Positions 4,323 to 24,734 of a stretch of DNA of 64,000 nucleotides are shown here, piece after piece. The notes beneath the pieces are model-generated. The model did no database searches. It was given only the letters and a program-made list of their open reading frames with translations, and was not told the DNA's origin. The translations under genes were made by a program, and so were the position numbers. Every line of letters starts with the position of its first letter. Positions within the stretch are counted from its first letter, which is position 1. Source of the stretch: Candidatus Eremiobacteria bacterium (GTDB taxonomy: Bacteria > Vulcanimicrobiota > Vulcanimicrobiia > Vulcanimicrobiales > Vulcanimicrobiaceae); the NCBI GenBank assembly GCA_963737065.1, contig CAVTRC010000001.1:736001-800000 (forward strand), in the 5' to 3' direction.

Positions 4323-5429
4323 ATGGAAATCGATTCGAGCATCACCCGCGCCTTGAAAGTCCTTGCAATTGCGGCGCTATCGATCGGGCTGTTGATGCTT
4401 TTCGTTGAAGCGCTTCGTCTACTCGGAACGAGCGGCCTCGTCATCCTCGCCTCGATCGTGATCGCGTACTTGATAGCTCCGATCGTCGGTGTGCTGCGAC
4501 GCCGGATGCCGATGTGGGCGGCGCTGCTCGTCACGTATGTGGGGTTCGCCGCGGTCGTGCTGGTTGCGTTCTTCGCGATCGTGCCGCCGCTGTTCAACGA
4601 GGCACGTTCGCTGATCTCCGATCTGCCCGCCGCGTTTACGTACTTGCAAAACGAGATTCTCAATCCCAAAAACCCGTTCGTCGCCAAACTTCCGCCGGCC
4701 GTTATCGAACAAATCAAAACGTTGCCGTCGCAAATTAATGCGTTCGTTGCAAAGTACGGGTTCGGCGTCGCGCAGGCGACGATCGGCGGTTTGTTCTCCG
4801 TCGTAACGCTGTTCTTGTCGCTGATCATCGTTCCGGTATTGTCCGCGTACTTCTTTTTCGACACGGCGGAGATAAAACGTGGATTCTTGGGCATCGTTCC
4901 GCGTGCCGCGCGGCCGCGGACGGCCGCAATCCTTGCGGATCTGAACACTACGCTGGGCGCGTTCGTGCGTGGCCAAGCACTCGATGGGTTGATCCTCGGC
5001 GCATTGATCGCAATCATGCTAGCAATCATGCACGTTCGCTACGCGCTCCTCATCGGTGTAGCGTGCGGAATTTTGAACCTCATTCCGTATGTCGGCGCGC
5101 TGATCGGCTTCGTTCCCGCAGTTGTGCTTGCACTCGTCTTCAACGGCTGGCAAAATGCGGTCATCGTCGCGATTCTCTTCTGCGTCATTCAGCAACTCGA
5201 CGGAAATGTGATCTTGCCGCGCGTGATGAAAGGCAGCGTGCAACTCTCGCCGCTCGTCATCATCATCGCGATCTTGATCGGTTCGGCATATTTCGGCGTC
5301 ATCGGGACGTTTCTCGCCGTTCCTGTCGCGGCGATACTGCGCGTGCTAAAGCTTCACTTCGCGCCCGCGCCGACGCCCGCACAACTAGCCACCGACGAAA
5401 AGCGCGTCACGGCGCTCGAACTGCTCTAG
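4323..5429 (+). CDS. AI-2E family (PerM-like) transporter
   Basis: Multi-TM; FVRGQ, LNLIPYVG, QQLDGNVILPRVM, LAVPVAAIL. Confidence 0.92.
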   Translation: MEIDSSITRALKVLAIAALSIGLLMLFVEALRLLGTSGLVILASIVIAYLIAPIVGVLRRRMPMWAALLVTYVGFAAVVLVAFFAIVPPLFNEARSLISDLPAAFTYLQNEILNPKNPFVAKLPPAVIEQIKTLPSQINAFVAKYGFGVAQATIGGLFSVVTLFLSLIIVPVLSAYFFFDTAEIKRGFLGIVPRAARPRTAAILADLNTTLGAFVRGQALDGLILGALIAIMLAIMHVRYALLIGVACGILNLIPYVGALIGFVPAVVLALVFNGWQNAVIVAILFCVIQQLDGNVILPRVMKGSVQLSPLVIIIAILIGSAYFGVIGTFLAVPVAAILRVLKLHFAPAPTPAQLATDEKRVTALELL

Positions 5430-8400
5430 GTTGTGGCTACCGGGCAGAATAATGCCCGCCAGATTGAGCGGATCGTACGCCGTCACGGCTGATAGTTCGC
5501 TCTCATCGTGATTACGTCGCGATGCGCGCAATGCATCGACCGCCTCGGGAAGCGCAAACTGTTCGCCGACATACCCGCTGACAAACCGTCCGCCGCGCAC
5601 TTCGCCGCGCGCTTCCATGCGGCGCAGCGCAAGCAGCAACTCGCGCCACCGGGGTGCGAGCGTTTCGCGCGCCACGACGTCGCGGAATACGATACCCCAT
5701 CGCTTGAGCAAACGGCGAGCGAACGTGTCGGCGTCGATTTTTTCCGTCGCGGAATCGATGCACGCCCACCGGCCCCCCGAGGATCGTGGCCGCGCGCGCA
5801 AGCCTTTTTCGCCAAGACGGCGCTTAGCGTCGATGAGCGAGCGCAGCGCATCGAAGCCATCGGCGGTCACGAGCCCGGCCGCGACCAACTGCCACAGCGC
5901 TTCTTCGACTTCCGCCGGAAGCCGTTTGGTCCCGCGAACGATATCGGCGAAGAACGGTGCACCCTTACGCGCAATTTCTTCGAACACGTCTTGCGCTGCG
6001 GGCGAAAGACCGCTCGTTTTGAACTCGTTGCGAACGATCAGTTCGTGCGCATGTTCACGCGTGAAGAGCGAAATCGGCGCCAGCTTCGTTGGACGCACGC
6101 GACGTTGCGCTTCGTTTGCCGGATCGAGCGCCGGGTGCGGCGAGAGCCGTCCCCACATCACTTCGCCCGAATAGCACAAATGATCGAGGAACTCGCGCCG
6201 GTAGTTCGCGACGCGGGACGGAAGAATCTGCGCTTCCCATGCCGCGGCTGGAATCTCGTAACCTTCCAACTGGCGAATCACCTGCAACGTGCCGTCGACA
6301 CCGTGCAATCGAGCAAGAGGCGCGACGTGTTGCCAGGAGTGCAAAAAGCGAACGAACTGCGCCGACGTGACCGGTTCGATTTCCCGCCGCAGTTGTCCAA
6401 TCGTACGTCGATGAATGCGCGCGATTACCCGCCGGTTACACCACTCTTCTTCCGGGCCGAGAAAACGCCCGCGCAACACCTGGCCTTGCGTTTCGAGGCG
6501 AAGCAACGCCGCTTCGACGTCTGCCGGTTCGATCGCGAGACGCTCCGCGATCGAAAGCGACGTCGCAGGACCGGTCGATTCCATCCACCCGCGCAGGATT
6601 TCAGCGACCGCTTCCTCTTGCGACTGCGCCGCACGTTCGCTCGTCACGGCAGCGATCTGCGGATCGAACGTCGCATCGGGATACGCCAAGCGCGCGATAT
6701 CGAGCCGCTCGGCGCTCGTCCAGAACGGCGCGCCGCGTGTCGCGAGCGTCGTGGCACGATGCTGCGCCACGAGCTCGTCGTAGAACGGCCGCCAGTCGCT
6801 GCACGGCGGCGCGACGACGAGCGTTGCAAGCGCATCGTGCAGTTCGTCCGCGTCTCGCACGATCGGCCACGACTCTTCCGCGACCTCCGCGATGATCGCT
6901 CCGTCCAGAATTCCCGCGCCGTCGACGTCGTCGCGAATCGTGCGGCGTAATTGAACGGCGCGCGCGCGCCGTTCCTCGAGCGGCGCATCATCGAGGTACG
7001 CATATGGATTCGCATTGAGAATCTCGTGACAGAACGGCGAGGGTTCCGGCGTATCAACCCCTACGGTTCGTATTACGCCGCTCTCTATCCGGCGCAGGAT
7101 GTCGAGCAAGCCGTCGAGATCCATCGCCTCGTGCAGACAATTACCGATCGTTTCCCGCACGAGCACGTGGTTGGGGATCCGAATCGGCCCGCTCAAGTTT
7201 TCAGCGCACGCCGCTTGATCGGGAAACACGGCCGCGACGAGGTCGTCGGCGCGCATCCGTTGCAGTTGCGGCGGCACTTTGCGTCCGCCGCGCATGCGCG
7301 TGATCGCGAGCGCGCGCGTCGCGTTCCACCGCCAGCGCGCACCGAACATCGGCGCGGCGAGCAAGGCCTGCGTCAACGCGTACTCGACGCTCGTGGACTT
7401 GACGTATTCGAAGACCACGTCCAGCGGAAACGCGTGCTGCTCCGTGAGCGATAAGACGATGCCGTTGTCCGTTGCGGCCGCTTGCAGCTCGACGTTGAAC
7501 GAACGGCAAAACCGCTTGCGCAGCGCGAGACCCCACGCGCGATTGACCCGCGCACCGAATGGCGTGTGCAGAATCAGCTGCATGCCGCCGCCTTCATCGA
7601 AAAATCGTTCGGCAACCAACGTCTCATCGGTCGGCACGACGCCGAGAATCTTTTTGCCCGCGCGCACATACGCGATGAGCTGGTCGGCACCCCCATCCTC
7701 GAGCGCGCATTCCGTGATGAGAAACTCGCGTGCATCGGCGTCGCCTCGTTCGTCGATCGCCCGGCGCACGCAGCTCACTTCGTGCGAAAGCTCGAGCGTG
7801 CGTCCGGGACCTTCACCGTTCCAGAACGGCACCGTCGGCGGCGCGCCGTGCGCGTCTTCAACGCGGACCACGCCGGGTTCGACGCGGCGAATTCGCCACG
7901 AGTTCGTTCCAAGCATGAAGATATCGCCCGCTAGGCTTTCCACGGCGAAATCTTCATCGAGCGTTCCGACGATGTGCCCGTCCGGCTCCGCGACGACGTT
8001 GTAATTCGCAGTTTCGGGGATTGCTCCGCCGGAGGTGATCGCGGCCATTCGCGCACCGCGCCGTCCGCGCAACCGCCCGTTGACCCGGTCGTAATGCAGA
8101 TACGCGCCGCTTCGGCCACGCGAGGTCGCAACGCCGTCGGCGAGCATGTCGATGACATCGTCGAAGTCTTTCCGCTCTAAATCGCGATACGGATATGCAC
8201 TTCGAACAAGACCGTACAAATCGTCTGCAATCCATTCGCCGGCACCGCACGCGGCGACGATGTGCTGCGCCAAAATGTCGAGCGGCGACGATGGAATCTT
8301 CAGTGTGTCCATCGCGCCGTTGCGAATCGCGCGCACGAGCGCCGCGCATTCCAGCAAGTCGTCACGCGTTGTGGGAAAGAAACGGCCCTCCGGTTTTGCG

Positions 8401-9494
8401 CCGACCCAGTGCCCCGAACGCCCAATGCGTTGCAATGCAACCGCAATCGAACGCGTGCTTCCGAGTTGGACGACGAGATCGACCGACCCGATATCGATCC
8501 CGAGTTCCAACGAGGCAGTCGCGACGACCGCCTTCAACTCGCCGTTCTTCAGCCGGTTTTCGGCCTCGAATCGCTTCTCTTTCGCTAAGCTCCCATGATG
8601 CGGGAGAACGGCATTCACGCCCAAACGCTCCGAAAGCGCGAAGGCAACGCGTTCGCTCATCCGCCGCGTGCCGACGAACACGAGCGTCGTGCGATTGGCG
8701 AGGATCAATTCCGCGACGCGATCGTACGTCTCGCCCCACAGTTCATTGCTCGCCACCGGGCCCAGCTCGTCTTTCGGCACTTCGATCGCAAGTGTCATCG
8801 GCCGCCGGCTACCAATGTCGAGGACGCGGGCGTCCCGGCTCAAGAATTCTGCGACGTCTTCCAACGGACGTACCGTCGCCGACAGCCCGATCCGTTGCGG
8901 CTTCCGTCCGGATCTCTCTTGAACGAGCGCATCCAGCCGCGCGAGCGTGAGCGCGAGATGCGATCCGCGCTTGTCGGCGACCATCGCGTGAATCTCGTCG
9001 ACGATGACGGTCGACACGTTGGTAAACAATGCGCGCGACTTCTCTGCCGTCAACAGAATGAAGAGTGATTCGGGCGTCGTCACGAGCACGTGGGGCGGTT
9101 TGCGCAGCATGCGTTGACGCTCCACCGTCGTCGTATCGCCCGTCCGGACGGCGGTACGAATCGGCGGAAGTTCGAGGCCTTGCTGACCGGCGAGCGCGTA
9201 AATTTCACCGAGCGGCGTCTCGAGATTCTTGTGAATGTCGTTCGTCAGCGCTTTGAGCGGCGATACGTACACGACGCGCGTTTCATCGAGGAGCGTTCCC
9301 TCCGCCGCACGAGCGACCAGCTCGTCGAGGCAAATCGAAAACGCAGCAAGCGTTTTCCCCGAGCCGGTCGGCGCGGAAATCAAGACGTCTTGGCCACCGC
9401 GAATAACCGGCCAGCCTTGAAGTTGCGGCTCCGTCGGTCTGCCGTACCGCGTGCCGAACCACTCGCGTATGAGCGGGTGGAATGCGTCGATCAT
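5385..9494 (-). CDS. lhr: Lhr-family DEAD/DEAH-box helicase
   Basis: APTGSGKT, YVSPLKAL, RTGDT, DEIH, GLSAT, HHGSL, LELGIDIG, QRIGRSGH; C-terminal winged-helix region 'RGGRFV'. Confidence 0.93.
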   Translation of the reverse strand: MIDAFHPLIREWFGTRYGRPTEPQLQGWPVIRGGQDVLISAPTGSGKTLAAFSICLDELVARAAEGTLLDETRVVYVSPLKALTNDIHKNLETPLGEIYALAGQQGLELPPIRTAVRTGDTTTVERQRMLRKPPHVLVTTPESLFILLTAEKSRALFTNVSTVIVDEIHAMVADKRGSHLALTLARLDALVQERSGRKPQRIGLSATVRPLEDVAEFLSRDARVLDIGSRRPMTLAIEVPKDELGPVASNELWGETYDRVAELILANRTTLVFVGTRRMSERVAFALSERLGVNAVLPHHGSLAKEKRFEAENRLKNGELKAVVATASLELGIDIGSVDLVVQLGSTRSIAVALQRIGRSGHWVGAKPEGRFFPTTRDDLLECAALVRAIRNGAMDTLKIPSSPLDILAQHIVAACGAGEWIADDLYGLVRSAYPYRDLERKDFDDVIDMLADGVATSRGRSGAYLHYDRVNGRLRGRRGARMAAITSGGAIPETANYNVVAEPDGHIVGTLDEDFAVESLAGDIFMLGTNSWRIRRVEPGVVRVEDAHGAPPTVPFWNGEGPGRTLELSHEVSCVRRAIDERGDADAREFLITECALEDGGADQLIAYVRAGKKILGVVPTDETLVAERFFDEGGGMQLILHTPFGARVNRAWGLALRKRFCRSFNVELQAAATDNGIVLSLTEQHAFPLDVVFEYVKSTSVEYALTQALLAAPMFGARWRWNATRALAITRMRGGRKVPPQLQRMRADDLVAAVFPDQAACAENLSGPIRIPNHVLVRETIGNCLHEAMDLDGLLDILRRIESGVIRTVGVDTPEPSPFCHEILNANPYAYLDDAPLEERRARAVQLRRTIRDDVDGAGILDGAIIAEVAEESWPIVRDADELHDALATLVVAPPCSDWRPFYDELVAQHRATTLATRGAPFWTSAERLDIARLAYPDATFDPQIAAVTSERAAQSQEEAVAEILRGWMESTGPATSLSIAERLAIEPADVEAALLRLETQGQVLRGRFLGPEEEWCNRRVIARIHRRTIGQLRREIEPVTSAQFVRFLHSWQHVAPLARLHGVDGTLQVIRQLEGYEIPAAAWEAQILPSRVANYRREFLDHLCYSGEVMWGRLSPHPALDPANEAQRRVRPTKLAPISLFTREHAHELIVRNEFKTSGLSPAAQDVFEEIARKGAPFFADIVRGTKRLPAEVEEALWQLVAAGLVTADGFDALRSLIDAKRRLGEKGLRARPRSSGGRWACIDSATEKIDADTFARRLLKRWGIVFRDVVARETLAPRWRELLLALRRMEARGEVRGGRFVSGYVGEQFALPEAVDALRASRRNHDESELSAVTAYDPLNLAGIILPGSHNLEQFERRDALFVGG

Positions 9495-9575
9495 CGTCTT
9501 CCCTTCGACACCGCGGGGCGTTCGACGGTTGCCGAATGTCGCTTGCTATGAGCGGCCACCCGGCGACGCGCGCAC

Positions 9576-10010
9576 TTACTTCAGCGGCGTCATCGTTTCG
9601 GGTCCCATGCCGTCAATTTGGATGACGGTCTCTTCCTTGACCATCGCGTAGTGCGGAAGATTCGCCGGAACGCTTACGAAGGTGCCGGCGGGCAACGCCT
9701 TCATTTGGTTTTGATCCTCCGTCTTTCCCAAGCCGACCCACAACGTTCCGGAGATGACCGTGACGTTTTCCGTATCACCGTGAACGTGGGGCGGTAACTT
9801 GGCGCCGGCGGGCAGCTTTAGACGCATGATGTAGATGCCGCTCTTCGTCGGGTCACCGAGGAGCACGGCCATCTGCGCTCCCTGGTATCCGCCGGTGCCG
9901 GCGACCCAATTCGTGGCGTCCGGTGTCGTGATTGCGGGCCCCGTTGCGGCGAGCGACGTGCCGGCAAATACGGCGACCAGCGAGGCGAGAAAAATCACAA
10001 AAACGCGCAT
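9576..10010 (-). CDS. Secreted cupin-domain protein (DUF4437-like)
   Basis: Signal peptide; 'LLGDP..SG.Y.MRLKLP', PPHVH...E..TVISG, PANLPH. Confidence 0.85.
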   Translation of the reverse strand: MRVFVIFLASLVAVFAGTSLAATGPAITTPDATNWVAGTGGYQGAQMAVLLGDPTKSGIYIMRLKLPAGAKLPPHVHGDTENVTVISGTLWVGLGKTEDQNQMKALPAGTFVSVPANLPHYAMVKEETVIQIDGMGPETMTPLK

Positions 10011-10093
10011 GCGTTACACCTCCGAAGGGATGACCCATCGTATGACAACGCGGAGAGTCCCTGAAGAAGGAAACGAAATTCGAGCGCGATTGG

Positions 10094-10978
10094 CTAATTC
10101 GACGAGCCCGCGAACACGCGGCTTTTCAGAAGGTCGTCGGGCGCTAGCGTCATCAAGTCGGTGCGCGTAATTTCGCCTTCGCGATCGAACAGCCGATTCG
10201 CTGCGCGCAAACGGGCGCGGTCGATCGCGTTGCGCACGCTGCGCGCGTTGGCGAAGTTCGGCTGGCGCACCCGGCGCTCGAGGTAGTCGCGAAAAATTCG
10301 TTCCGTTTCCGGTGCGAATTCGTAATTCAGTTGGCGCAGCATCACATGCGCGATGGCGACGAGTTCCTCGATCGTGTAATCCGGGAAATCGATGTGATGA
10401 GCAACTCGCGATCGTAGCCCTGGATTTGCCGTGAAGAATTGCTCCATGCCGCGTTTGTATCCGGCAAAGACGACTACCAGATCGTCGCGTTGCTCCTCCA
10501 TCACTTGGAGTAAGATTTCAATCGCCTCGATGCCGTAGTCGCGCTCGTTTTCCGGCCGGTACAAATAGTACGCTTCGTCGATGAACAGCACGCCGCCCAT
10601 CGCGCGCTTCAAGACTTCCTTCGTCTTCGGCGCCGTATGTCCGACGTATTGTCCGACTAAGTCGTCGCGCGTCGCGACGACGACGTGTCCTTTTCGAACG
10701 TAACCCAGCGCGGCGAGGACCTGCGCCACGCGTAGCGCAACGGTCGTTTTTCCGGTTCCGGGCGGCCCCGTGAACGACATGTGGAGCGGAACCTTCTGCG
10801 TGGCGAGCCCGGCGTCACGGCGCATTCGCTCGACGAGCAAGAGATGAGCGATCTCGCGTATTCGCGTCTTCACCGGCACAAGGCCGACTAACTCGTCGTC
10901 GAGTTGTGCCAGCACATTGCCGACGCCCGACTCGGCAAACACGGCCTTTAGGTCGAAGCGGCGTTCATTCTGAATCAT
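10094..10978 (-). CDS. cbbX: RuBisCO activase CbbX (AAA+)
   Basis: [73 protein letters not shown]. Confidence 0.97.
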
Positions 10979-11294
10979 GAAGAGCCGGTCGATGGACGAT
11001 GAAGCTGAGCGCGGTCGTCTGACGTCCGAGGCTTGCATCGTAAGCGTTCACTTTTACGTAGCAGCCCGAATGCAGCGCTCGCGCGCGGCGAACCTCGCCT
11101 AAGACGGCCGCGGGATCGCGCAGATCGAACATCGGCAAACCGAACATCTCCCAGTAATTGTTGCGCGGGTCCGGGTCATCCGTAAACTCGATCGAGACCG
11201 CCCACCCGTTATCCAACGAATACTCGATCTGCTTGCCGATTTGTTCGTCGGTCAGCGGTGGTAGAAATGAAAACGTTCCTTGAGTGATGTGCAT
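10965..11294 (-). CDS. cbbS: RuBisCO small subunit, red-type, 109 aa (C-terminally short)
   Basis: [63 protein letters not shown]. Confidence 0.96.
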
Positions 11295-11305
11295 CGTTCG
11301 GCCTT

Positions 11306-12799
<1,494 letters not shown>

Positions 12800-12808
12800 T
12801 CACGCTCG

Positions 12809-12875
12809 ATTCTTGCACCGCGACTCATAGGCGTCAAATACATTGTTTTCGCGAACGTATAAATGCAAACTTATG
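12809..12875 (-). promoter_or_regulatory. cbbL promoter: LysR/CbbR box (CATAA-N8-TTATA), -35 TTGACG, 17-nt spacer, -10 AAGAAT
   Basis: Read directly on the minus strand; near-identical counterpart at 13747-13813. Confidence 0.8.
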
Positions 12876-13749
12876 CGTGCTTGAAGCCGCCGCGTTCGCA
12901 GAGGTACGAGACGAACGTGAGCGCCGCGGGCGAAAGCTCCCGCTCGGCGCTCGCGACGGCATGCCACGGGCGCATCAACGGGGTAAGCGGCGTTGCGACT
13001 TCTTCGATGAGCCCGTATTCCAATTCCCGAGTAACGGCATCGCGCGCGAGCAAGGACATCCCGAGTCCGCAGCGGACGCCTTCGCGGATGGCCGTGTTCG
13101 ATCCGACGGTCAAGCACGCGGGCGTGATTCCGGCCATTGAAAAAAAGTCTTCAGTGGTGGAACGCGTCCCAGACCCCGGCTCGCGCAGCAGCCAGGTTGC
13201 ATGAGCGAGATCGGCCAACGTTCGCGCGCCGCTTCCCGGCCGCGCGACGATGACGAGTTCGTTCGGCCGCGTCGCCAGCGTGCGCAGTAGGTGTCCTTCC
13301 GGAGGATGGCCCGCAAGAGCGAGCTCCACTTCCCAGGCATTCAGTAATTCCCAAACGCTGCCGCGATTGCCGATCTCCAGGCCGATTTCGACCGAGCCGC
13401 GCTCGTCGCGGAAACCGCGAAGCAATTCCGGGAGCAGTTGTTCCGCAAGCGTCGTCACCGCAGCGAGGCTCAGGAAAGCATTTCCCTCACCGGACCTGCG
13501 CGCTCGCGAGCATCCTTCTTCGATGAGCGCGAGCGCACGACGCGCCGACTCGACCATGACGCGACCGGCGTCCGTGAGACGCGTACCGCGCCCGTCCCGC
13601 TCGAACAACGCGACGCCCACTTCGCGAGCGAGCGCGGTGAGCGCCGCCGATACTGCCGGCTGCGACACGACCATGCGATCGGCGGCCGCGCGAACCGAGC
13701 CGCTTTTCGCAACTTCGACGAGCGTTCGCAACTGATGCAGCGATGGCAT
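12871..13749 (-). CDS. cbbR: LysR-family regulator CbbR
   Basis: HTH 'SLHQLRTLVEVA..GSVRAAA...VSQPAVS', WLLREPGSGTR; lies inside the cbb locus. Confidence 0.92.
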   Translation of the reverse strand: MPSLHQLRTLVEVAKSGSVRAAADRMVVSQPAVSAALTALAREVGVALFERDGRGTRLTDAGRVMVESARRALALIEEGCSRARRSGEGNAFLSLAAVTTLAEQLLPELLRGFRDERGSVEIGLEIGNRGSVWELLNAWEVELALAGHPPEGHLLRTLATRPNELVIVARPGSGARTLADLAHATWLLREPGSGTRSTTEDFFSMAGITPACLTVGSNTAIREGVRCGLGMSLLARDAVTRELEYGLIEEVATPLTPLMRPWHAVASAERELSPAALTFVSYLCERGGFKHA

Positions 13750-13813
13750 AAAACGGGCCTTATGAATAAGCGAAAATATTTTATTTGACGCCTATGTGTC
13801 GCGGTGCCATGAT
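13747..13813 (+). promoter_or_regulatory. fba-fbp-prk promoter: LysR box CATAA-N8-TTATG, -35 TTGACG, 17-nt spacer, -10 CATGAT
   Basis: Palindrome at 13747-13764 overlapping the cbbR start codon; TTGACG 13785-13790; CATGAT 13808-13813. Confidence 0.8.
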
Positions 13814-13850
13814 ACCACAAAAGTCGCACTTCACCTCGGGAGATGTACAC

Positions 13851-14897
13851 GTGGGCACACATGGCGTTTGCTTGGCGCAAGTCGCCGATTCGCTGGTCGC
13901 TTCCGGTAAAGGCATCCTCGCCGCGGATGAGAGCATCCAAACGTGCAACAAGCGATTCCAAGCCCTCGGGATACCGGCCACGGAAGAAACGCGTCGTGCG
14001 TACCGCGAGCTTCTGTTCACTGCGCCGGGTCTTCGCAGCTACATCAGCGGCGCAATAGTATGCGACGAAACGATGCGGCAAACGACCTCGCGCAACGTGC
14101 GTTTCGTCGATGCATTACAGCGCGAACGCATACTCGTCGGAATCAAGGTAGATACCGGAACCGAATCGTTTCCCGGCTCGCCCGATGAAAAGATCACCAC
14201 GGGACTTGACGGGCTCGCGGAACGGATCGCGGAGTACCGCGCACTCGGAGCGCGTTTTGCCAAATGGCGCGCGGTGATTGCGATCGGCGAGAACCGGCCG
14301 TCGCAACACTGCATCGAGGCTAACGCGTACATGCTCGCGCGCTATGCGCGTATCTGCCAAGAAGGCGGCCTCGTCCCGATCGTCGAGCCCGAAGTGCTCA
14401 TGGACGGTTCGCACGACCTTGCCCGGTGCGCCGAAGTCACCGTGATCACGCTCGCGATCGTGTTCGAACAACTGGATCAGGAACGCGTTTGGCCCGATGA
14501 AATGATTTTGAAGCCGTCGATGGTGATCGAAGGCAGCGCCGCGCCGCTGCAGTCGGACCCCCGCGTGGTTGCGGCCGCGACGGTAACCGCATTGAAGAGA
14601 ACCGTTCCCTCACACCTCGCCGGCATCGCGTTTTTGTCGGGAGGGCAGAGCGCGCTGCGTGCCACGGAAAATCTGCATGCGATCACGCGCCTCGCGGGCG
14701 AGTCGTTGTGGCCGCTTACGTTCTCTTTCGGCCGCGCGCTGCAATCGACGGCGCTCGAATATTGGCGGGGAGCAGATGACCGGGTCGTGGAGGCGCAACG
14801 CAAGCTCGTACGTCGCGCTCGGTGCAACGCTGCCGCAGCGCTCGGAATGTACGAACAATCCATGGAAGAGGGTGCCCGCCAAGCGGTGCCGGCATAG
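13851..14897 (+). CDS. fba: Class I fructose-bisphosphate aldolase
   Basis: GKGILAADES, GIKVDTG, RFAKWRAVI, VPIVEPEVL, ILKPSMV, FLSGGQS, TFSFGRALQ; GTG start 13851 after RBS GGGAG and downstream of the promoter. Confidence 0.95.
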   Translation: MGTHGVCLAQVADSLVASGKGILAADESIQTCNKRFQALGIPATEETRRAYRELLFTAPGLRSYISGAIVCDETMRQTTSRNVRFVDALQRERILVGIKVDTGTESFPGSPDEKITTGLDGLAERIAEYRALGARFAKWRAVIAIGENRPSQHCIEANAYMLARYARICQEGGLVPIVEPEVLMDGSHDLARCAEVTVITLAIVFEQLDQERVWPDEMILKPSMVIEGSAAPLQSDPRVVAAATVTALKRTVPSHLAGIAFLSGGQSALRATENLHAITRLAGESLWPLTFSFGRALQSTALEYWRGADDRVVEAQRKLVRRARCNAAAALGMYEQSMEEGARQAVPA

Positions 14898-15965
14898 ATG
14901 CAACCGCGCACGACGTTCAGCCGCTTCATCACCGAAGATCAGCGACGTAAATACGGCGATCCAAACCTCGTCGCTCTTTTGAACGACGTTCAAAGTGCAT
15001 GCAAGCTGATTGCCTCGTACGTTGCGCGCGCATCGCTCGATCACGGCACGAAGCGTGAAAAAACGTTGAACGTTCACGGCGAACATCAAAAGCCGCTGGA
15101 CGTCATCGCGAACGAGATATTTCTGCGCGAATGCGAGTGGGGCGGACACCTGGCCGGAGTCATATCGGAAGAGATGGCTGAGCCGTACGTCATTCCGCCC
15201 ACGTTTTCCAAAGGCGACTATTTGCTCGTATTCGATCCAGTTGACGGGTCGTCCAACTTCGATGTGAATGTGACCGTCGGGTCGATCTTTTCAATTCTTC
15301 GGTCAACGTCGACCGAGGTCGATGCCGATACGTTTTTGCAGGCCGGGAAGGAACAAGTAGCGGCCGGCTTTGCTCTTTATGGGCCGGCCTCGATGATCGT
15401 GCTCACGCTCGGCGAGGGTGTCTTCGGGTTCACGCTCGACCCGCAAATGGGCGTCTATACGCTCACTCATCCCTTTATGACCATTCCGAATAACGCGCAC
15501 GAATTCGCAATCAACGCGTCAAACGAACGTTTTTGGGAGCCGCCTGTTCGCTGCTACGTCGCTGAGTGCGTACAAGGAAAGTCCGGTCCGCGCGGGGCCG
15601 ACTTCAATATGCGGTGGATTGCATCGCTCGTGGCCGAGGTGTATCGCATTCTCATTCGCGGCGGCGTCTTCATGTATCCGCGCGACAAGCGCGAGCCGCT
15701 CAATCCCGGCCGGTTGCGCCTGCTCTACGAAGCAAATCCAATGGCGATGATCATCGAACAAGCCGGCGGTTTGGCGTCGACCGGGCGCGAGCGAATTCTC
15801 GATATCGTTCCCTCCGCGATCCATCAAAAAGTGCCGCTGATCCTCGGTTCTGCATGCGAGGTCGAACGCGTCTGCAGCTATCATGCGACGTACGATCGCG
15901 GCGAAGCTTTGACGTTCGCTACGCCGCTCTTCAATCAACGCTCGCTTCTGCGCGCTACCCCGTAG
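14898..15965 (+). CDS. fbp: Class 1 fructose-1,6-bisphosphatase (CbbF-like FBPase/SBPase)
   Basis: QKPLDVIAN, SEEM, FDPVDGSSN, FNMRWIASLVAEVYRIL, RLRLLYEANP. Confidence 0.96.
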   Translation: MQPRTTFSRFITEDQRRKYGDPNLVALLNDVQSACKLIASYVARASLDHGTKREKTLNVHGEHQKPLDVIANEIFLRECEWGGHLAGVISEEMAEPYVIPPTFSKGDYLLVFDPVDGSSNFDVNVTVGSIFSILRSTSTEVDADTFLQAGKEQVAAGFALYGPASMIVLTLGEGVFGFTLDPQMGVYTLTHPFMTIPNNAHEFAINASNERFWEPPVRCYVAECVQGKSGPRGADFNMRWIASLVAEVYRILIRGGVFMYPRDKREPLNPGRLRLLYEANPMAMIIEQAGGLASTGRERILDIVPSAIHQKVPLILGSACEVERVCSYHATYDRGEALTFATPLFNQRSLLRATP

Positions 15966-15975
15966 CGGAGACACC

Positions 15976-16895
15976 ATGTCCGTCAAGCATCCGATCATCG
16001 GCGTCACGGGATCGTCGGGCGCCGGCACTACGACCGTGCGAACGACGTTTTCGCAGATATTCCGGCGCGAACGGATTGCAGCAACGATTGTCGAGGGCGA
16101 CGCTTTTCATCGATATTCGCGCGAGGAGATGCGCCGGCAACTCGATGGCGCGCATGAGCGAGGCGACCCGCATTTCAGCCACTTCGGCCCCGAGGCCAAT
16201 CTCTTCGTCGAGTTGCAAGCGCTCTTTGAAAGTTACGCGCGTAACGGCTCCGGAAAGGTTCGCGCGTACCTGCATGACGAGAACGACGCGGCTCCATATC
16301 AGCAAGTTCCGGGAACGTTCACACCGTGGATGGATCTGGCACCCGGCGAGCGATCTGCTCTTCTACGAGGGCTTGCACGGCGCCGTGGTCACGGACAAGA
16401 TCGACGTCGCGCGCTACGTCGACCTGCTCATCGGGGTCGTGCCGTCGGTCAATCTCGAGTGGATTCAAAAACTCCATCGCGACAAGACGCAGCGTGGTCA
16501 CTCGCACGAGGCCGTCGTCGATACGATTCTGCGCCGAATGCCCGACTACGTGAACTATATCTGCCCGCAGTTTTCACGAACCGATGTGAACTTTCAGCGC
16601 GTTCCAATCGTCGATACGTCGAACCCCTTCGTCGCGCGTGCGATTCCGGCCGCGGATGAGAGTATGCTCGTTATCCGTTTCCGAAACCCGAAGAGAGATC
16701 GACTTTCCGTATTTGCTCGCGATGCTGCACGGTTCGTTTATGTCACGGCAGAACACGATCGTGTGTCCGGGCGGAAAGATGGACCTCGCGATGCAGTTGA
16801 TTTTCACGCCGATGATTCTGCAACTCATGGACCGCAAGAAGCGCATGTTGCCGCAGCCGATCCAAGGCGGGACGCGGGAACCGGTTCTTTCCTGA
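15976..16895 (+). CDS. prk: Phosphoribulokinase, with two apparent +1 frameshifts (~16348, ~16694)
   Basis: Three consecutive frames join to a full PRK: MSVKHPIIGVTGSSGAGTT...TFTPW / SDLLFYEGLHG...NLEWIQK..RD...PQFSRTDVNFQRVP / IDFPYLL..LHGSFMSR. Confidence 0.93.
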
Positions 16896-16910
16896 TGTAA
16901 CGATAGGCCC

Positions 16911-17624
16911 GTGCGAACGTTCTCGGTACAACTTGCATCGACATGGAAACCGGAACGCTCCGCATTCGTAACGATCGTTATCGACGTCTTGCGCGCGACG
17001 ACGGTCATCGCTACGGCGCTTGCCAACGGCGCGACGCGAGTCGTCCCGACGATCGACATCAACGAAGCGCTCGCGTCACGGCAACGCTTCGGTCGCGACG
17101 TGGTTCTCGGCGGAGAACGGAACACTACTCGAATCGAGGGCTTCGACCTCGGCAACTCGCCCGCCGAATATACCGCGCGCCGAGTGAACGAAAAAATCGT
17201 CGTCCTGACCACGACGAATGGAACGCGCGCTATTCATGTCGCAGCACAATGTTCCGCGCAACTCTATACCGGCGCGCTCGTGAACGCGTCCGCAACCGCC
17301 GAGCGTGCGTGCACGCACGAACTTCCGATCGTTGCCCTCTGCGCCGGAACACAAGGCGAGTTCAGCTTGGAGGATTGGATTTGCGCGGGAGCTTTGGCCG
17401 ATGCGTGCGCGAAGAAAGGGCTCTCGCTCGACGATGCCGCAATCGCGGCGGCCGAATTATTCCGCGCTAAACGCACCGGCCTCTATCACGCGATCAGCGG
17501 CGGCAAACACGCCCAAATCCTCATCGAGAACGGCTTCGCAGGCGACGTCGAGTTCTCGGCCACGCTTGACCGTTACGATGTCGCTCCGGCTTTCGCCGGC
17601 GGCTCGCTGCAACGCGAGCGCTAA
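16911..17624 (+). CDS. comB: 2-phosphosulfolactate phosphatase (ComB) family phosphatase
   Basis: VIDVLRATT, LGGER, FDLGNSP, TTTNGTRA, FSLEDWICAG. Confidence 0.9.
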   Translation: MRTFSVQLASTWKPERSAFVTIVIDVLRATTVIATALANGATRVVPTIDINEALASRQRFGRDVVLGGERNTTRIEGFDLGNSPAEYTARRVNEKIVVLTTTNGTRAIHVAAQCSAQLYTGALVNASATAERACTHELPIVALCAGTQGEFSLEDWICAGALADACAKKGLSLDDAAIAAAELFRAKRTGLYHAISGGKHAQILIENGFAGDVEFSATLDRYDVAPAFAGGSLQRER

Positions 17625-18481
17625 GGGTGAAACATCGCGCGGAAGATGTATACGCCCGGGACGTCGCGGCAGAACGCGCGCGGCGCTTCGTACGTCGATA
17701 GACGGGCCGCGCGAAGAGCAGCGTCGTCGAACGCCTTGACGCCGGACGGCGCGTACACCCACGCACCGTCAAGCTCGCCCTTTGTGCCGACGGCGATTTC
17801 AATGAGCGACTGGTAGACTTGATCGATGTGATAGCCGACGGGCAAATCCGGCCTCATCGCTTCGCTCGCTCTTGCCGGCGCGAACGGCAGCGCGCAGTCG
17901 GTCGGGCCCGGAGCGCTCGCAATGACGGGGTGCAACAGCGGCGTACCGGGCGGCGGCGGTGTCGGCGCCGCGTCGGGATCCAAGGCAACGATGTCTTTCC
18001 CGATCGTCGTTTCCGGATGCTTTGGATCGTACTCAGAACCGGCGCACGCGTGCGATTGCGAATCCCAGCCCAAGGTGTGCTCGTCGGTGACGCGTGCATC
18101 ACTCACGAACGCCGCACGAACGACGGCCGGCGAAGAGAACGCCGCGAACAGCGCGGGCGACTCAAAATCCGTTCGAGTGAATACCGCCGACGGTCCTTCG
18201 AACCGTCGCGTGCGCGCGGTCAAATTCACGCCGTCGAATGGAATCTCGTACCAGCCGTCGTCGGTCTGCACGGAAATGTCACCCGAGACCGTGCGCGAAC
18301 TATTGGCCGACAATCGCACCGCGTACGTGGTTGCCGGCGTGCCGGTTGCGGCACCGACCGGCGTGAGGCTCGCCGAAGCTCCGCAGTACTCGACGATCGC
18401 GAGCGCACGTCCGTGCGCAGCGCCAACGAAAGCGAAAATTCCAGCAGCAAAAAGCGCAACACGAAACGCGCGATGATTCAT
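17621..18481 (-). CDS. Secreted protein with C-terminal TonB_C domain
   Basis: Signal peptide, Pro-rich linker APTPPPPG, 'PSGVKAFDDAALRAARLSTY'. Confidence 0.7.
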   Translation of the reverse strand: MNHRAFRVALFAAGIFAFVGAAHGRALAIVEYCGASASLTPVGAATGTPATTYAVRLSANSSRTVSGDISVQTDDGWYEIPFDGVNLTARTRRFEGPSAVFTRTDFESPALFAAFSSPAVVRAAFVSDARVTDEHTLGWDSQSHACAGSEYDPKHPETTIGKDIVALDPDAAPTPPPPGTPLLHPVIASAPGPTDCALPFAPARASEAMRPDLPVGYHIDQVYQSLIEIAVGTKGELDGAWVYAPSGVKAFDDAALRAARLSTYEAPRAFCRDVPGVYIFRAMFHP

Positions 18482-18558
18482 CACGACCTTTTCCGCTCCC
18501 CCCGCAAAGGCAACCTGCCGGAAGGATTCACATTCGTGCAGGCGGACTACCAATCGTC

Positions 18559-19594
18559 GTGGCTATCAAAAAGCGAAACCGGCACAGCGCTTCTTCTTTA
18601 GAGCGGCGCGGGACTAAGCGACGAGCAACTCGTTGCGATCCTGCGAACGATGCTGATGCACCGTCGCTTGGAAGGTCGCGGCTTCGAACTGAATCGGCAA
18701 GGGAAGATTCCGTTCGCATCGGCCGGCGAAGGTCATGAAGCGGTTCAAGCCGGCGCGGCGATGGCGTTCGAGCGCGGCAAGGATATCCTCGTTCCGTACT
18801 ACCGCGATCTCGGACTCGACATCGGCATCGGGCTTTCACCGTTCGAGGTGCTGCTTTCACTTTTTGCGCGCGCTGGAGATCAATCCGGTGGGCGTCAATT
18901 TCCGCACCACTATGCGAGCAAAAGACTCGGCCTGTACTCGATCAGCTCCGTTCTTGCCGCGCAGCTCCCGCACGCCGTCGGCGCCGCGTATGCGCTGAAG
19001 TACCGCGAAGAAACCGGGCGGGCCGTGCTCGCAACCGTTGGCGACGGCGCGACGTCCGAAGGCGAGTGGCATGAGTCAATGAATTTCGCGGCGATCCACA
19101 AGCTACCGATCGTGTTCCTCTGCGAGAACAACGAATGGGCGATCTCGACGCCGCTCGCCAAGCAAATGGCGAATCAGAACATCTACGAGCGCGCCGAAGG
19201 TTACGGCATGCCGGGTGTCCAGGTCAACGGGTTCGATCCGATCGCCTGCTATGCGGTGGTGAAGGAGGCCATGGAGCGCGCGCGCTCGGGCGGCGGTCCC
19301 ACCTTCATCGAGGCGAAGTGTTACCGATTCCTCGCGCACACGACGGACGACGACGATCGTACGTATCGGAGCCGCGAGGAGGTCGCGGACCGGCGCAGGG
19401 ACGACCCGGTTCCCAACTTCCAACGCCTGCTCGTCGAACACGGTGTGCTGACGCCCGAGGGCCTTGAAGATTTGAAGCGTTCCGTCCTGACGGAGGCGAA
19501 CGAAGCCACGGACCGGGCGGAATCGATGCCGTATCCGGCTCCGCACGACCTCTACACCGATGTGTACGCGGATTCGTATCAGCCCTGGCGCTGA
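18559..19594 (+). CDS. 2-oxoacid (branched-chain type) dehydrogenase E1 alpha, copy 1; N-terminal ~30 codons frameshifted
   Basis: LNRQGKIPF, PYYRD, GDGATSEGEWHE, ENNEWAISTP, YRFLAHT; upstream GTG 18559 and GLSDEQL segment match copy 2. Confidence 0.9.
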
Positions 19595-19611
19595 TGCGCT
19601 GACGCGTGCTT

Positions 19612-19637
19612 CGTGGTTCGACAGGCTCACCATGACA
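19612..19637. repeat. REP-like short element (TGGTTCGACAGGCTCACCATGAC)
   Basis: Resembles the widespread 'TTCGACA.GCTCA' REP-like repeat family; reverse strand reads MVSLSNH; only one copy noticed. Confidence 0.55.
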
Positions 19638-19653
19638 CGGGGAACGAAACAAC

Positions 19654-20680
19654 GTGGCTAAAACGGACGTAACGGCGAAGGGCGTAGATCGTCACGGGCT
19701 GACGGACGAGCAGTTGCAGCAAATCTTTCGGAACATGCTGCTGCAGCGTCAACTCGACAATCGCGGCTTTCAACTCAACCGCCAAGGCAAAGTGCCGTTC
19801 GCGCTCGGCAGCGAGGGACACGAAGCGCTGCAAGCCGGCGCGGCGATGGCGTTTCATCGCGGCAAAGACATCCTCGCGCCGTACTATCGCGATCTCGGTC
19901 TCGCGGTCGGCATCGGGCTCACGCCGTACGAGATCATGCTCTCGATCTTTGCGCGACGCGACGATCATAACGGCGGACGTCAGTTTCCGAATCACTATTC
20001 GTCGAAAGCGGCGGGCTTGATGTCGTTCTCATCGATTCTCGCTGCGCACATTCCGCACGCGATAGGCGCTGCATATGCATTGAAGTATCGCGGGGAAACC
20101 GGACGCGCGGTGCTCGTGACCTGCGGCGACGGCACCACGTCCGAAGGCGAATGGCACGAGTCGATGAACTTTGCGGCGATTCACTCATTGCCGCTCGTGA
20201 TGCTCGTCGAGAACAACGAATGGGCGATTTCGACGCCGCTTTCGAAGCAGATGGCGCAACCGGAAATTTGGAAGCGCGCGGCGGGATACGGCATGCCGGG
20301 CAAACGGTTCAACGGCTTCGATCCGATCGAAACGTACGCAAACGTGAACGAAGCCATGGAACGCGCACGCTCGGACGGCGGCCCGACCCTTCTCGAAGGG
20401 ATGTGTTACCGCTTCTTGGCGCACTCCACGGACGACAACGATATGACGTACCGCACGAAAGAGATCGTCGCCGAAGCGCGCAAGAACGATCCGGTGCCGA
20501 AGTTTCAAACGCTGCTGCGTCGAGGACGGCATCATGAGCGAAGCCGACGTCGACGCGATGAAAAAAGACGTGCTGCGCGAGACGAACGAGGCGACCGATA
20601 AAGCCGAAGCCGTTCCATATCCGCAAGCGTCAGATCTCTATAGCAATCTCTACGAGGGAGCCTGGCAGCCGTGGCAGTAA
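19654..20680 (+). CDS. 2-oxoacid dehydrogenase E1 alpha, copy 2; +1 frameshift at ~20518
   Basis: LNRQGKVPF, GDGTTSEGEWHE, YRFLAHS; shifted frame continues VEDGIMSE...YEGAWQPWQ* like the C-terminus of copy 1. Confidence 0.92.
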
Positions 20681-21672
20681 CCGCCGGATCGAAAGTTCTT
20701 AATAATGTCGAGGCCGTACGCGAAACGCTGTACGAAGCGATGAAGAATGACGACCGCACGATCATTCTCGGCGAAGACGTCGGCGCTCGCGGGAATGTCT
20801 TTCTCATCACGAAGGATTTCATCAGCGAGTTCGGTCCGGACCGCGTCATCGACACACCGATCGCGGAAGCGTCCATCGTCGGTATCGCCGTCGGCATGGC
20901 GATGGAAGGCCTGCGCCCGATTGCGGAGATTCAATTCGCCGATTTCATCTATCCGGCGTTCAACCAAATCGTCGGTGAAGCGGCGAAGACACGCTATCGT
21001 TCGAACGGTGAATACACGTGTCCGCTCGTGATTCGGACGCCGTACGGCGGCGGGGTTCGCGGTGCGCTTTCGCACTCGGTCTCGATCGAAGCGTTGTTCT
21101 ACCACGTGCCCGGGTTGAAGATCGTTGCGCCGGCGTTTCCCGCCGACGTGAAGGGTTTGCTCAACGCCGCGATCGACGATCCCGATCCGGTGCTCTTTCT
21201 CGAACACAAGAAGACGTATCGTTTGATTAAGGGTGAAGTGCCCGAGGGTCACTACACGATTCCGATCGGCAAGGCGAACGTTCTCAAGGAAGGCGCTCAG
21301 CTCACCGTCGTGTCGTACGGGCTGTACGTACACTGGGCGCTCGAAGCCGCCAATCAATTGGAGAACGAAGGCATGTCCGTCGAAGTGATCGATCTGCGCT
21401 CCATCCGCCCGATGGATCGCACAACAATTCTCACGAGCGTCGAGAAGACGCGCAAACTGCTCGTCATCCACGAAGACAACAAGTTCGGCGGTATCGGTGC
21501 CGAGATTTCCGCGATGGTCGCGGAAGAAGCGCTCTTCTCGCTCGACGCGCCGATTCGCCGGCTCGCCGCGCCCGACGTCCCGGCGATGGGCTACGCGGAA
21601 CCACTCGAACACGAGTACATGTCGTCCCCGGCCGCGATGGCCGATGCAATGCGCGAGTTGGTGAAATTCTAA
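20671..21672 (+). CDS. 2-oxoacid dehydrogenase E1 beta
   Basis: [45 protein letters not shown]. Confidence 0.95.
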
Positions 21673-23094
21673 TGGCTACAACGATCACGATGCCGCAACT
21701 CGGCGAAACGGTTACCGAAGGCACCGTCGCACAGTGGCTCAAGAACGTCGGCGACACCGTTGAGAAGTACGAGCCGTTTCTCGAAGTATCGACCGATAAG
21801 GTCAATGCGGAAGTCCCCGCACCCGTGACGGGCGTTATCAAAGACGTGCTCGTGAAAGAAGGCGACACGGTCCCGGTCGGTACTGCGATTGCAGTCATCG
21901 AAGAAGTGGACGGCGCAACCGAAGCTGCGCCTGCAGCACAACCACCGTCGACGACTGAATCGATGGCCGCAAGTGCGAACGAAGAGCCCGTTCCCGGGTT
22001 CAACATTCCGCAATTGCCGACGAACCGGCAGCCGCGTCATCGGGTAACGGCCACACGCGCACGGGAACGGCGTGATTCCGAGTTCGTACGGCGCATCCGG
22101 CGGTCTCGAAGGCGCGGAGGACGCGCTTCGCAAGGCGTCGCCGGCGGTGCGCAAACTCGCGCGCGAGAACAACATCGACATTCGAGCGATCCGCGGAACC
22201 GGCACGAACGGACGCGTTACCGCGGAAGACGTCATGGCGGCGGCCGCAATGGGTCCGGCCGCGGCCGTCGGTCAAGCGATTGCGACCGGCACGAATTTCG
22301 GCGCAACGCCGCCGCCGTCGTTTGCAGCCTCCGCGCCGCCCGCGGCTCCCCCGCCGGCGCCGGCCGCGTCCGGTACATCGAGCTACGGCGCACCGATTCC
22401 CGGCACCGTTATTCCGCTCACGCAAGCGCGCCGCATCATCGCGGAACGCATGGTTGAATCGAAGCATACTGCGCCGCATGCGTGGTCGATGGTTTCGATC
22501 GACGTGACGAACGTGTGGAAATGGCGCGCTCGCGAAAAGGATCGCTTCGAACGCGAAACGGGATACAAATTGACGCTTCTGCCGTTCTTCATTCGCGCCG
22601 TGATCGAGTCGATATCGGTATTTCCCTTGATGAACGCAAAGTTTACGGCGGACGGGATCTACGTGAATAAAGACGTCAACATCGGCATCGCGATCGGTCT
22701 CGCGACAAACCTCGTCGTTCCCGTCATCAAGGGTGCCGATGCCTTGTCGATCAAGGGCCTCGCGATTGCGGCAGGCGAGTTGATCGATAAAGCGCGTCGC
22801 AACAAGCTCGGCGTGGACGATCTCGCGGGTGGAACGTTCACCGTGAACAACAACGGCGCGAACGGTTCATGGGCGTCCGCGCCGATCATCAACGGCGGTC
22901 AAGCCGGAATCGTTACGATGGAAACGGTAGAAAAGAAGCTGCTCGTGCGCGAAGACGATTCATTTGCTCCACGTTACGTGATGAACTCGTGCCTCTCGCT
23001 CGACCATCGCGTCGTCGACGGTTACGTCGCAAGCGGCTTCCTCGCCGACCTGAAGAAACGACTCGAAAAAATGGGCCCGGACGGCGCGCTCTAG
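21672..23094 (+). CDS. Dihydrolipoamide acyltransferase E2; net +1 frameshift in the linker (~22026-22060)
   Basis: Lipoyl domain [11 protein letters not shown]...[11 protein letters not shown]3-binding [18 protein letters not shown]; catalytic SLDHRVVDG. Confidence 0.92.
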
Positions 23095-23209
23095 TTGCGC
23101 GGCCGGCGAGCGTTACGTCGAACCGCGGTTCCGAGGTGCTCGACGACGCCACTAGGCCAGCGCCGCCCGACGTACGTACTTGAACCGACGTGTTTTCATC
23201 GATTGCAAA

Positions 23210-23233
23210 GGGAGATCGCGATTGCGATCTCCC
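23210..23233 (-). terminator. Intrinsic-terminator-like hairpin between convergent genes
   Basis: Perfect 10-bp stem GGGAGATCGC-GATT-GCGATCTCCC, 7 nt past the stop of the HAF-repeat gene; short T run on the minus strand. Confidence 0.6.
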
Positions 23234-23240
23234 GTCTGCG

Positions 23241-24581: not shown

Positions 24582-24734
24582 GGTTAGGCTCCTTTGCTCG
24601 CCCGAAGCGACTCTTGCCCGAGCATTTTGCGGATTGCGCCGCTCGCCGCCGCGTTCCCGAATGGCAGTTTTTCGTTGATGAGAGTTCATGCGACGCGGGG
24701 TCACGGCAAGACGCCATGTTGCGTTTGGCATGGT

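Follow-up and report, generated by a model that had tools for sequence, protein, structure and literature searches.

Structure and uniqueness of the promoter module

The locus studied here raises the question of why a regulator gene of the Calvin cycle is bracketed by two mirror-oriented copies of one promoter, and how this arrangement arose. It is located in a 64,000-nt stretch of the genome of a Candidatus Eremiobacteria bacterium (GCA_963737065.1, contig CAVTRC010000001.1, positions 736,001 to 800,000), called the window below, within which all positions are given. The regulator is a LysR-family protein of 292 amino acids, encoded on the minus strand (12871..13749) and CbbR-like by context; its gene is here called cbbR. 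One promoter copy is directed at the operon cbbL-cbbS-cbbX, the other at an operon formed by fba, fbp, prk and a comB-like gene. The analysis indicates that these are probably two copies of one CbbR-type promoter, both bound by the CbbR-like protein encoded between them and co-regulating both operons, and that the orientation of cbbR is probably fixed, resulting from an old flip. The layout is an unusual but evolutionarily stable form of a familiar bacterial gene switch.

The module covers 67 nt and includes an 18-bp palindromic box, 20 nucleotides (N20), a -35 hexamer, a 17-nt spacer and a -10 hexamer. On the minus strand upstream of cbbL, the box CATAAG-TTTGCA-TTTATA (12858..12875) is a putative CbbR recognition site matching the family consensus CATAAG-N6-CTTATG. 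The N20 that follows (12838..12857) contains GCGAAAA and ends in TGTAT, and on the basis of the register comparison and the family alignment it is a putative activation-site region. The cbbL promoter core (12809..12837) consists of the -35 hexamer TTGACG (12837-12832), a spacer ending in TGC and the -10 hexamer AAGAAT (12814-12809), with 9/12 hexamer matches in the sigma-70 scan. On the plus strand upstream of fba, the box CATAAA-ACGGGC-CTTATG (13747..13764) is followed by an N20 with GCGAAAA (13765..13784) and a promoter core (13785..13813) with TTGACG, a spacer likewise ending in TGC, and CATGAT.

The two copies (12809-12875 on the minus and 13747-13813 on the plus strand) have equal spacing and are identical in 48 of the 67 positions, and in 25 of 26 within the core (12815-12840 and 13782-13807). 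The repeat search found them as inverted arms of 38 nt (12815-12852 and 13770-13807), 89% complementary and with 917 nt between them. The similarity ends at the -10 hexamers, and the leaders before cbbL and fba are unrelated. An earlier note on this DNA had described both boxes, the spacing, the shared GCGAAAA and the core identity, and all of this was confirmed in the letters. The note had also regarded the 17-nt spacer as normally unconstrained, which did not wholly hold: YCNATG after the -35 hexamer is 59–72% conserved per position family-wide and TGn before the -10 hexamer is also recurrent, so that the spacer is partly constrained.

A pattern of the 23-nt core matched twice in the window and not at all in 100 dinucleotide-preserving shuffles. 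In the whole genome of 3,078,187 bases it had exactly two matches, and the reversed control had none. A position weight matrix was built from 41 metagenome promoters, excluding the window's own genome and that of its congener G003, and both strands of the whole genome were scanned with it. At a threshold of at least 12 bits only the two copies were found, with 66.2 bits on the fba side and 54.9 bits on the cbbL side; the module thus marks exactly the two cbb operons in this genome.

The sigma-70 scan of positions 12650-13950 detected exactly these two promoters, both with TG before the -10 hexamer, while 0.3 were expected from shuffles. When transcription starts are taken to be approximately 7 nt past the -10 hexamer, they would be near 12802 on the minus and 13820 on the plus strand, leaving cbbL and fba with leaders of about 30 nt and placing the centre of the box at about -64.5. 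According to the available text of PMC11495319, transcriptional regulators of the LysR type (LTTRs) have their high-affinity recognition site at about this distance (near -65) upstream of the start. Both the position predicted for the box and its palindrome fit this scheme. No terminator-like site was detected between cbbR and the cbbL promoter in the sequence scan of 12650-13950, and read-through from cbbR into cbbLSX is therefore possible. The Rfam search of positions 9000-19000 gave no family match.

A leaderless cbbR transcript started from the box was also considered and found unsupported, as the CATAAG half-site ends 9 nt before the ATG and positions -12 to -7 are not -10-like. In seven metagenome loci (L089, L048, L066, L064, L103, L043 and L059; L numbers denote individual loci) an ATG is situated 6 nt past the -10 hexamer of the promoter, suggesting that there the mRNA of the first cbb gene is leaderless.

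Conservation among relatives and in metagenomes

CbbR was matched at E ≤ 1e-40 in five of 41 related genomes, including the window's own (G000). In G003, which belongs to the same genus and has a 91% identical CbbR, the gene order, both promoter copies and the spacing are the same, and this settles the doubt, raised in the earlier note, that one copy might be an assembly artefact. When 348 family genomes were searched with the promoter pattern, G000 and G003 had two matches each and G267 and G318 one each. The unpublished genome G014 contributed a single tblastn row to the comparison of relatives, and no conclusion depends on it. The classic layout with cbbR divergent from cbbL was present in G318 (contig C7), G024 (contig C75) and G023, and the same promoter module was seen in G267, G318 and G023. 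A divergent cbbR of G267 starts at the CAT of the box, and downstream of the promoter there is a P-loop kinase gene followed by cbbLSX.

The scan of metagenomes with a six-sequence CbbR alignment produced 80 loci, the best 80 of 238 relatives. Sequence of 90 nt or more upstream of the cbbR homologue was available for 78 loci; a divergent box-promoter was present in 54 of them, and in 34 of the 78 the CAT of the box coincides with the inferred cbbR start codon. From 47 distinct promoters the consensus CATAAG-N6-CTTATG-aaT..AA.TtGTAT-TTGACg-tc.ATG..T.g..g.gc-cA..AT was derived; of its 32 well-conserved positions, the window copies share 28 and 29. A metagenome scan with the exact 27-letter promoter pattern gave no matches. 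The profile scan of genome contigs with CbbR found only two unrelated Actinomycetota loci (34–47% identity), the window's own kin being possibly outside that scan.

Two further observations concern the relatives. G318 has a second RuBisCO (L022, contig C60, at approximately 9417; large subunit 59% identical) with the same box-promoter and no cbbR match in the 1.5 kb upstream, and the cbbR of contig C7 may act on it in trans. The cbbL matches of L023 (G318 contig C7, 703-2047) and L024 (G023 contig C199, 1900-3280) are in two pieces, possibly reflecting frameshifts or assembly errors in the drafts.

Start and stop codons within the boxes

The ATG of cbbR (CAT at 13747-13749) is located inside the fba-side box and its stop codon TAA (12871-12873) inside the cbbL-side box. 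The earlier note had presented both overlaps as features of this locus; both are real, but the start codon in the box is no local peculiarity, being clade-wide as the metagenome count above shows. A stop codon within the CATAAG box was found in three lineages: G000 and G003, L025 and L026 (identical to each other), and L038. As a strict rule it is broken by L031, where the box is 41 nt past the stop, and by L027 and L029, which have approximately 0.9–1.2 kb between cbbR and cbbL. The C-termini of CbbR are of similar length across the six-sequence alignment. Any role of the stop-codon overlap is speculation.

Orientation of cbbR

In the tblastn synteny analysis of the 80 metagenome loci, cbbR is directed toward cbbLSX in six and cbbL is upstream on the opposite strand in 47, while 27 could not be classified. 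The co-directional six (L025, L026, L027, L029, L031 and L038) have the closest CbbRs among these 80 loci, with 60–64% identity. The co-directional order is thus atypical, as the earlier note had held, 51 of the 59 classifiable loci being divergent. A maximum-likelihood CbbR tree was constructed of 86 rows, 83 of them distinct (LG+C20+F+G4, posterior mean site frequency model). In this tree, which has a midpoint root only and in which related sequences share labels, the eight co-directional rows form one clade (UFBoot 99, SH-aLRT 96) as against 51 divergent rows. The clade is nested among classic divergent loci, and a single change of orientation suffices in 100% of 200 bootstrap trees.

The full bracket was present also in L038, where fba, prk and fbp are divergent from cbbR, cbbLSX follows cbbR, and each side has a promoter copy. 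Altogether three of the 63 metagenome loci with enough flanking sequence have the bracket, as judged with the matrix trained on the same loci: L038, which is co-directional, and L049 and L051, in which cbbR is reversed. In these latter two, cbbL is divergent from cbbR and the second promoter copy precedes fbp. Also in many divergent loci (L042, L049, L051, L062, L094, L103 and L104) fbp, fba or prk is directly downstream of cbbR. The order cbbLSX, cbbR, regeneration genes is therefore common, and in the clade of the window cbbR alone has turned. As the simplest history, comparison of the loci suggests that cbbR flipped once, long ago, between promoter copies in inverted order, with a swap of the operons as the alternative.

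Similarity of the two copies

The identity between the two window copies is unevenly distributed: only one of the six inner positions of the box is identical, as against 13 of 20 in the N20 and 25 of the 29 that make up the -35 hexamer, the spacer and the -10 hexamer. The cbbL-side and fba-side copies of G003 likewise share 48 of 67 positions, 24 of the 29 from -35 to -10. When the same side was compared between G000 and G003, the cbbL-side copies were identical in 56/67 positions (24/29 from -35 to -10) and the fba-side copies in 59/67 (27/29). The two copies within one locus are identical in 40/67 positions in L038, 35/67 in L049 and 28/67 in L051, with 16/29, 13/29 and 10/29 from -35 to -10, respectively. 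Two G-to-A changes in the spacer are common to both G003 copies relative to both G000 copies. This mosaic would fit functional constraint combined with a core that in this genus, represented here by two genomes, owes its likeness to common descent or to gene conversion.

Probable regulation of the two operons

Each copy would be a LysR-type activator-dependent promoter with a palindromic box, an A-rich segment, the -35 hexamer TTGACG and a 17-nt spacer ending in the TGn of an extended -10. The CbbR-like protein is predicted to bind both boxes and thereby to co-regulate cbbL-cbbS-cbbX and fba-fbp-prk-comB-like, one regulator gene serving a self-contained cbb island of approximately 7.5 kb. As the fba-side box holds the cbbR start codon, its occupancy should also limit the expression of cbbR, which would be the classic negative autoregulation of the LysR family. 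The mirror symmetry would result from the same promoter class being placed on either side of the regulator, and the high identity from shared functional constraint together with common descent or gene conversion of the core. The co-directional cbbR would be a fixed state produced by one old rearrangement, most simply a flip between the inverted promoter copies. The earlier note had proposed that a duplicated promoter co-induces the carboxylation and regeneration arms of the cycle. By comparison this is the best reading, since one conserved promoter class is tied to cbbR homologues and occurs at only two sites in the genome.

The open reading frame (ORF) of the regulator has the Pfam domains HTH_1 (PF00126, 72.6 bits, N-terminal helix-turn-helix) and LysR_substrate (PF03466, 122.8 bits, C-terminal substrate-binding domain), both above the cut-off, and the protein is thus a member of the LysR type. 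In the sense of gene context it is also a CbbR, as it is adjacent to RuBisCO and other Calvin-cycle genes, and its homologues adjoin cbbL in 53 of the 80 metagenome loci. Among solved structures, the matches to a generic LysR regulator (8sbf, E 5e-31) and to a 'Rubisco operon transcriptional regulator' (5y2v, E 8e-29) were about equal. The dyad CATAAG-N6-CTTATG of the box is strongly conserved and reads TNA-N8-TNA or T-N12-A.

Several results weigh against this interpretation. With the model of the Rhodobacter-type CbbR (NF045990) the regulator reached 155.8 bits, the cut-off being 450, and the YeiE model scored slightly higher (164.1 bits), also below its own cut-off; the name cbbR consequently comes from gene context only. 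Compared with the canonical CbbR and LTTR motif (TNA-N7-TNA, T-N11-A), the box has one additional base; the supplement text of PMC2942843, as far as available, mentions N7/8 for the CbbR motif. As the loci behind the matrix and the box counts had been collected by way of cbbR homologues, the link to cbbR is in part built into both. A conserved -10 hexamer for cbbR was sought on the opposite strand and not found (a maximum of 3/34 promoters at any position), and the promoter of cbbR itself was not located. An opposite-strand TGGTATCAT overlaps the fba -10 hexamer in G000 and G003, but the position is -10-like in only 3/34 other promoters. The distal spacer is identical in 10/10 positions between the window copies, yet only about 40–50% conserved per position family-wide, so that constraint alone does not explain the similarity of the copies. 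Finally, prk is in three frames in this assembly, and if it were really a pseudogene, the regulon would be decaying.

Alternative explanations

The box might be the operator of another regulator, or the promoters might be constitutive, the adjacent LysR gene regulating something else. The score of the protein below the CbbR cut-off would agree with this, as would the G318 contig with the same promoter before a second RuBisCO and no cbbR nearby. However, contig C7 of G318 does carry a cbbR, in 34 metagenome loci the start codon of the cbbR homologue is shared with the box, the box has the position and dyad symmetry usual for an LTTR recognition site, and in this genome it is present only at the cbb operons; we consider this explanation very unlikely. 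The probability that the copies are a chance similarity or an assembly artefact is practically negligible: the frameshifts in prk and in a gene further downstream show that the assembly is not error-free, but the shuffles produced no match and both copies are present in an independent genome (G003) and an independent metagenome contig (L038). The likeness of the copies could also be mainly due to recent duplication or gene conversion, the 38-nt arms being kept alike by recombination between the inverted copies and not by selection on each base. This is a possibility to be taken seriously, if a somewhat doubtful one. The mosaic of identity, the identical distal spacer, the two changes common to both G003 copies and the far greater divergence of the copies in L038, L049 and L051 speak for it. 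On the other hand, only two genomes and two sites are concerned, and parallel change or co-adaptation to the regulator is possible. The N20 sequences group by position and not by genome (19/20 between the left and 18/20 between the right copies), and from -35 to -10 the identity within genomes (25 and 24 of 29) is barely above that between paralogous copies of different genomes (23 and 22).

The earlier note had further suggested that the inverted cores could let the cbbR segment invert, or be the scar of an inversion. As an active switch, recombination between the arms would flip cbbR in living populations and change the operon that it faces. The arms do flank only cbbR, a flip would leave a box at the same spacing for both promoters, and the bracket exists with either orientation of cbbR in different lineages. 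Close strains with both orientations were nevertheless not found: G000 and G003 and all eight members of the deep CbbR clade have the same one. None of the 16 proteins annotated from 5385 to 24731 is a recombinase or invertase, and arms so short and imperfect are ill suited to frequent homologous recombination. Ongoing inversion is thus unsupported and highly improbable, while a historical scar is plausible in view of the reversed cbbR within the brackets of L049 and L051. It is unlikely, finally, that both codon overlaps are functional, occupancy of the fba-side box gating the start of cbbR and occupancy of the cbbL-side box acting as a roadblock at its 3' end; in this reading the mirrored operators would also have let cbbR flip between its targets in the course of evolution without loss of control. 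If this were true, the 3' roadblock would lead to stop-less transcripts with degraded products, or would set the amount of read-through from cbbR into cbbLSX.

Comparison with known systems

The proposed co-regulation of both operons by the CbbR-like protein has its closest counterpart in the CbbR-dependent cbb promoters of proteobacterial autotrophs. In Acidithiobacillus ferrooxidans, electrophoretic mobility shift assays showed one CbbR to bind the promoters of three cbb operons; the motif is TNA-N7-TNA, and cbbR is divergent from cbbL1 (available text of PMC2942843). As far as the sources available describe them, the systems of A. ferrooxidans, Xanthobacter flavus and Cupriavidus necator resemble the present one in having a LysR gene beside the RuBisCO genes and a pseudo-palindromic TNA-N7/8-TNA site upstream of a sigma-70-type promoter. 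The proteobacterial cbbR is divergent from cbbL and has its other targets elsewhere, whereas here cbbR is co-directional and bracketed by its two targets as mirror copies. The box is here longer by one base (N8), and the regulator scores below the CbbR equivalog cut-off.

The locus also resembles the classical divergent control region of LTTRs, for which the available text of PMC11495319 gives the sliding-dimer model: a symmetric recognition site is upstream of the target -35, and the regulator gene borders on this site, so that negative autoregulation is to be expected. It differs from the region as described there in that the start codon is inside the recognition palindrome and a second whole promoter copy overlaps the stop codon. 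VirR of Rhodococcus equi is, according to the same text, an LTTR whose gene is the first in its operon and co-directional with targets that have a promoter of their own past virR; a mirrored second copy and a divergent second operon are not described for VirR in that text (PMC11495319). With the rhizobial NodD and nod boxes the locus shares a long conserved LTTR-bound promoter element repeated before several operons, nodD being divergent from nodABCIJ and nod boxes being present also before nodFEL, nodMNT and nodO (available text of PMC5793154). The pathway and the box sequence are different. In Rhizobium leguminosarum nodFEL is directly downstream of nodD, and a nod box overlapping the stop codon of nodD is not known to us.

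A literature search, mostly outside subscription journals, gave no title or abstract match for a co-directional cbbR or an LTTR gene between inverted promoter copies, and the layout may have been published. The locus differs from the systems above in that a mirrored pair brackets the regulator, that start and stop codons are inside the boxes and that the regulator is directed at cbbL, while the function is likely mechanistically ordinary. From sequence alone, the locus gives a probable grammar of CbbR operators and promoters for a large clade that is for the most part uncultured, including the box, the spacing, the extended -10 and the start codon in the box, and this makes the regulation of the Calvin cycle in these organisms testable by simple binding and reporter assays. 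It also represents a compact cassette with the regulator between two targets, present as an indel in the genus, and a natural case of a regulator gene that occurs both ways round between mirror copies of its own promoter, which bears on the interconversion of divergent and co-directional layouts.

Other genes of the cbb island

On the minus strand, cbbL (11306..12772; NCBIfam, Pfam) encodes a form I RuBisCO large subunit of 488 amino acids and cbbS (10965..11294; Pfam) the small subunit, its start being placed at the first ATG after the cbbL stop. The RuBisCO activase-type AAA+ protein gene cbbX (10094..11038) reached 474 bits with TIGR02880 (cut-off 459); the coordinates are those of the longest ORF, and the true start may be further downstream. 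On the plus strand, the class I fructose-bisphosphate aldolase gene fba (13851..14897; NCBIfam, Pfam) has a GTG start behind GGGAG and is followed by the class 1 fructose-1,6-bisphosphatase gene fbp (14898..15965; NCBIfam, Pfam) and the phosphoribulokinase gene prk (15976..16900, the end being approximate; NCBIfam and comparison with G003). The last gene of this operon belongs to the ComB-like 2-phosphosulfolactate phosphatase family (16911..17624; NCBIfam, Pfam) and is present also in G003. It may replace the phosphoglycolate phosphatase (CbbZ) usual in cbb operons, ComB presumably being active on 2-phosphoglycolate.

Compared with the intact gene of G003, prk has one inserted base near 16348 and another near 16691, and the genome contains no further prk. 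The pyruvate dehydrogenase (PDH)-type E2 gene (dihydrolipoamide acyltransferase, 21672-23094) is split into two frames around 22022-22063, while its orthologue in G001 is intact (474 amino acids). Three frameshifts within approximately 6 kb suggest consensus errors of the assembly rather than decay. Single-base statements on this assembly need some caution, the promoter spacing itself being confirmed by G003.

Five other congeners (83–96% complete) had no cbbL match with the query used. In G001 and G005 (loci L110 and L111) the lhr-cupin block borders immediately on the PDH-type E1 genes. The region running from cbbX to the ComB-like gene (approximately 10094-17624) thus represents an indel of about 7.5 kb, which G000 and G003 carry at the same site. 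Between the ComB-like and E1 genes of the window there is a minus-strand ORF of 310 amino acids (17621-18553) with a weak TonB C-terminal match, to which nothing corresponds at this position in G003. The E1-beta and E2 genes are preceded by two paralogous E1-alpha genes in tandem (18650-20601; approximately 67–70% protein identity in tblastn), and the pair is kept in G001, G003 and G005.

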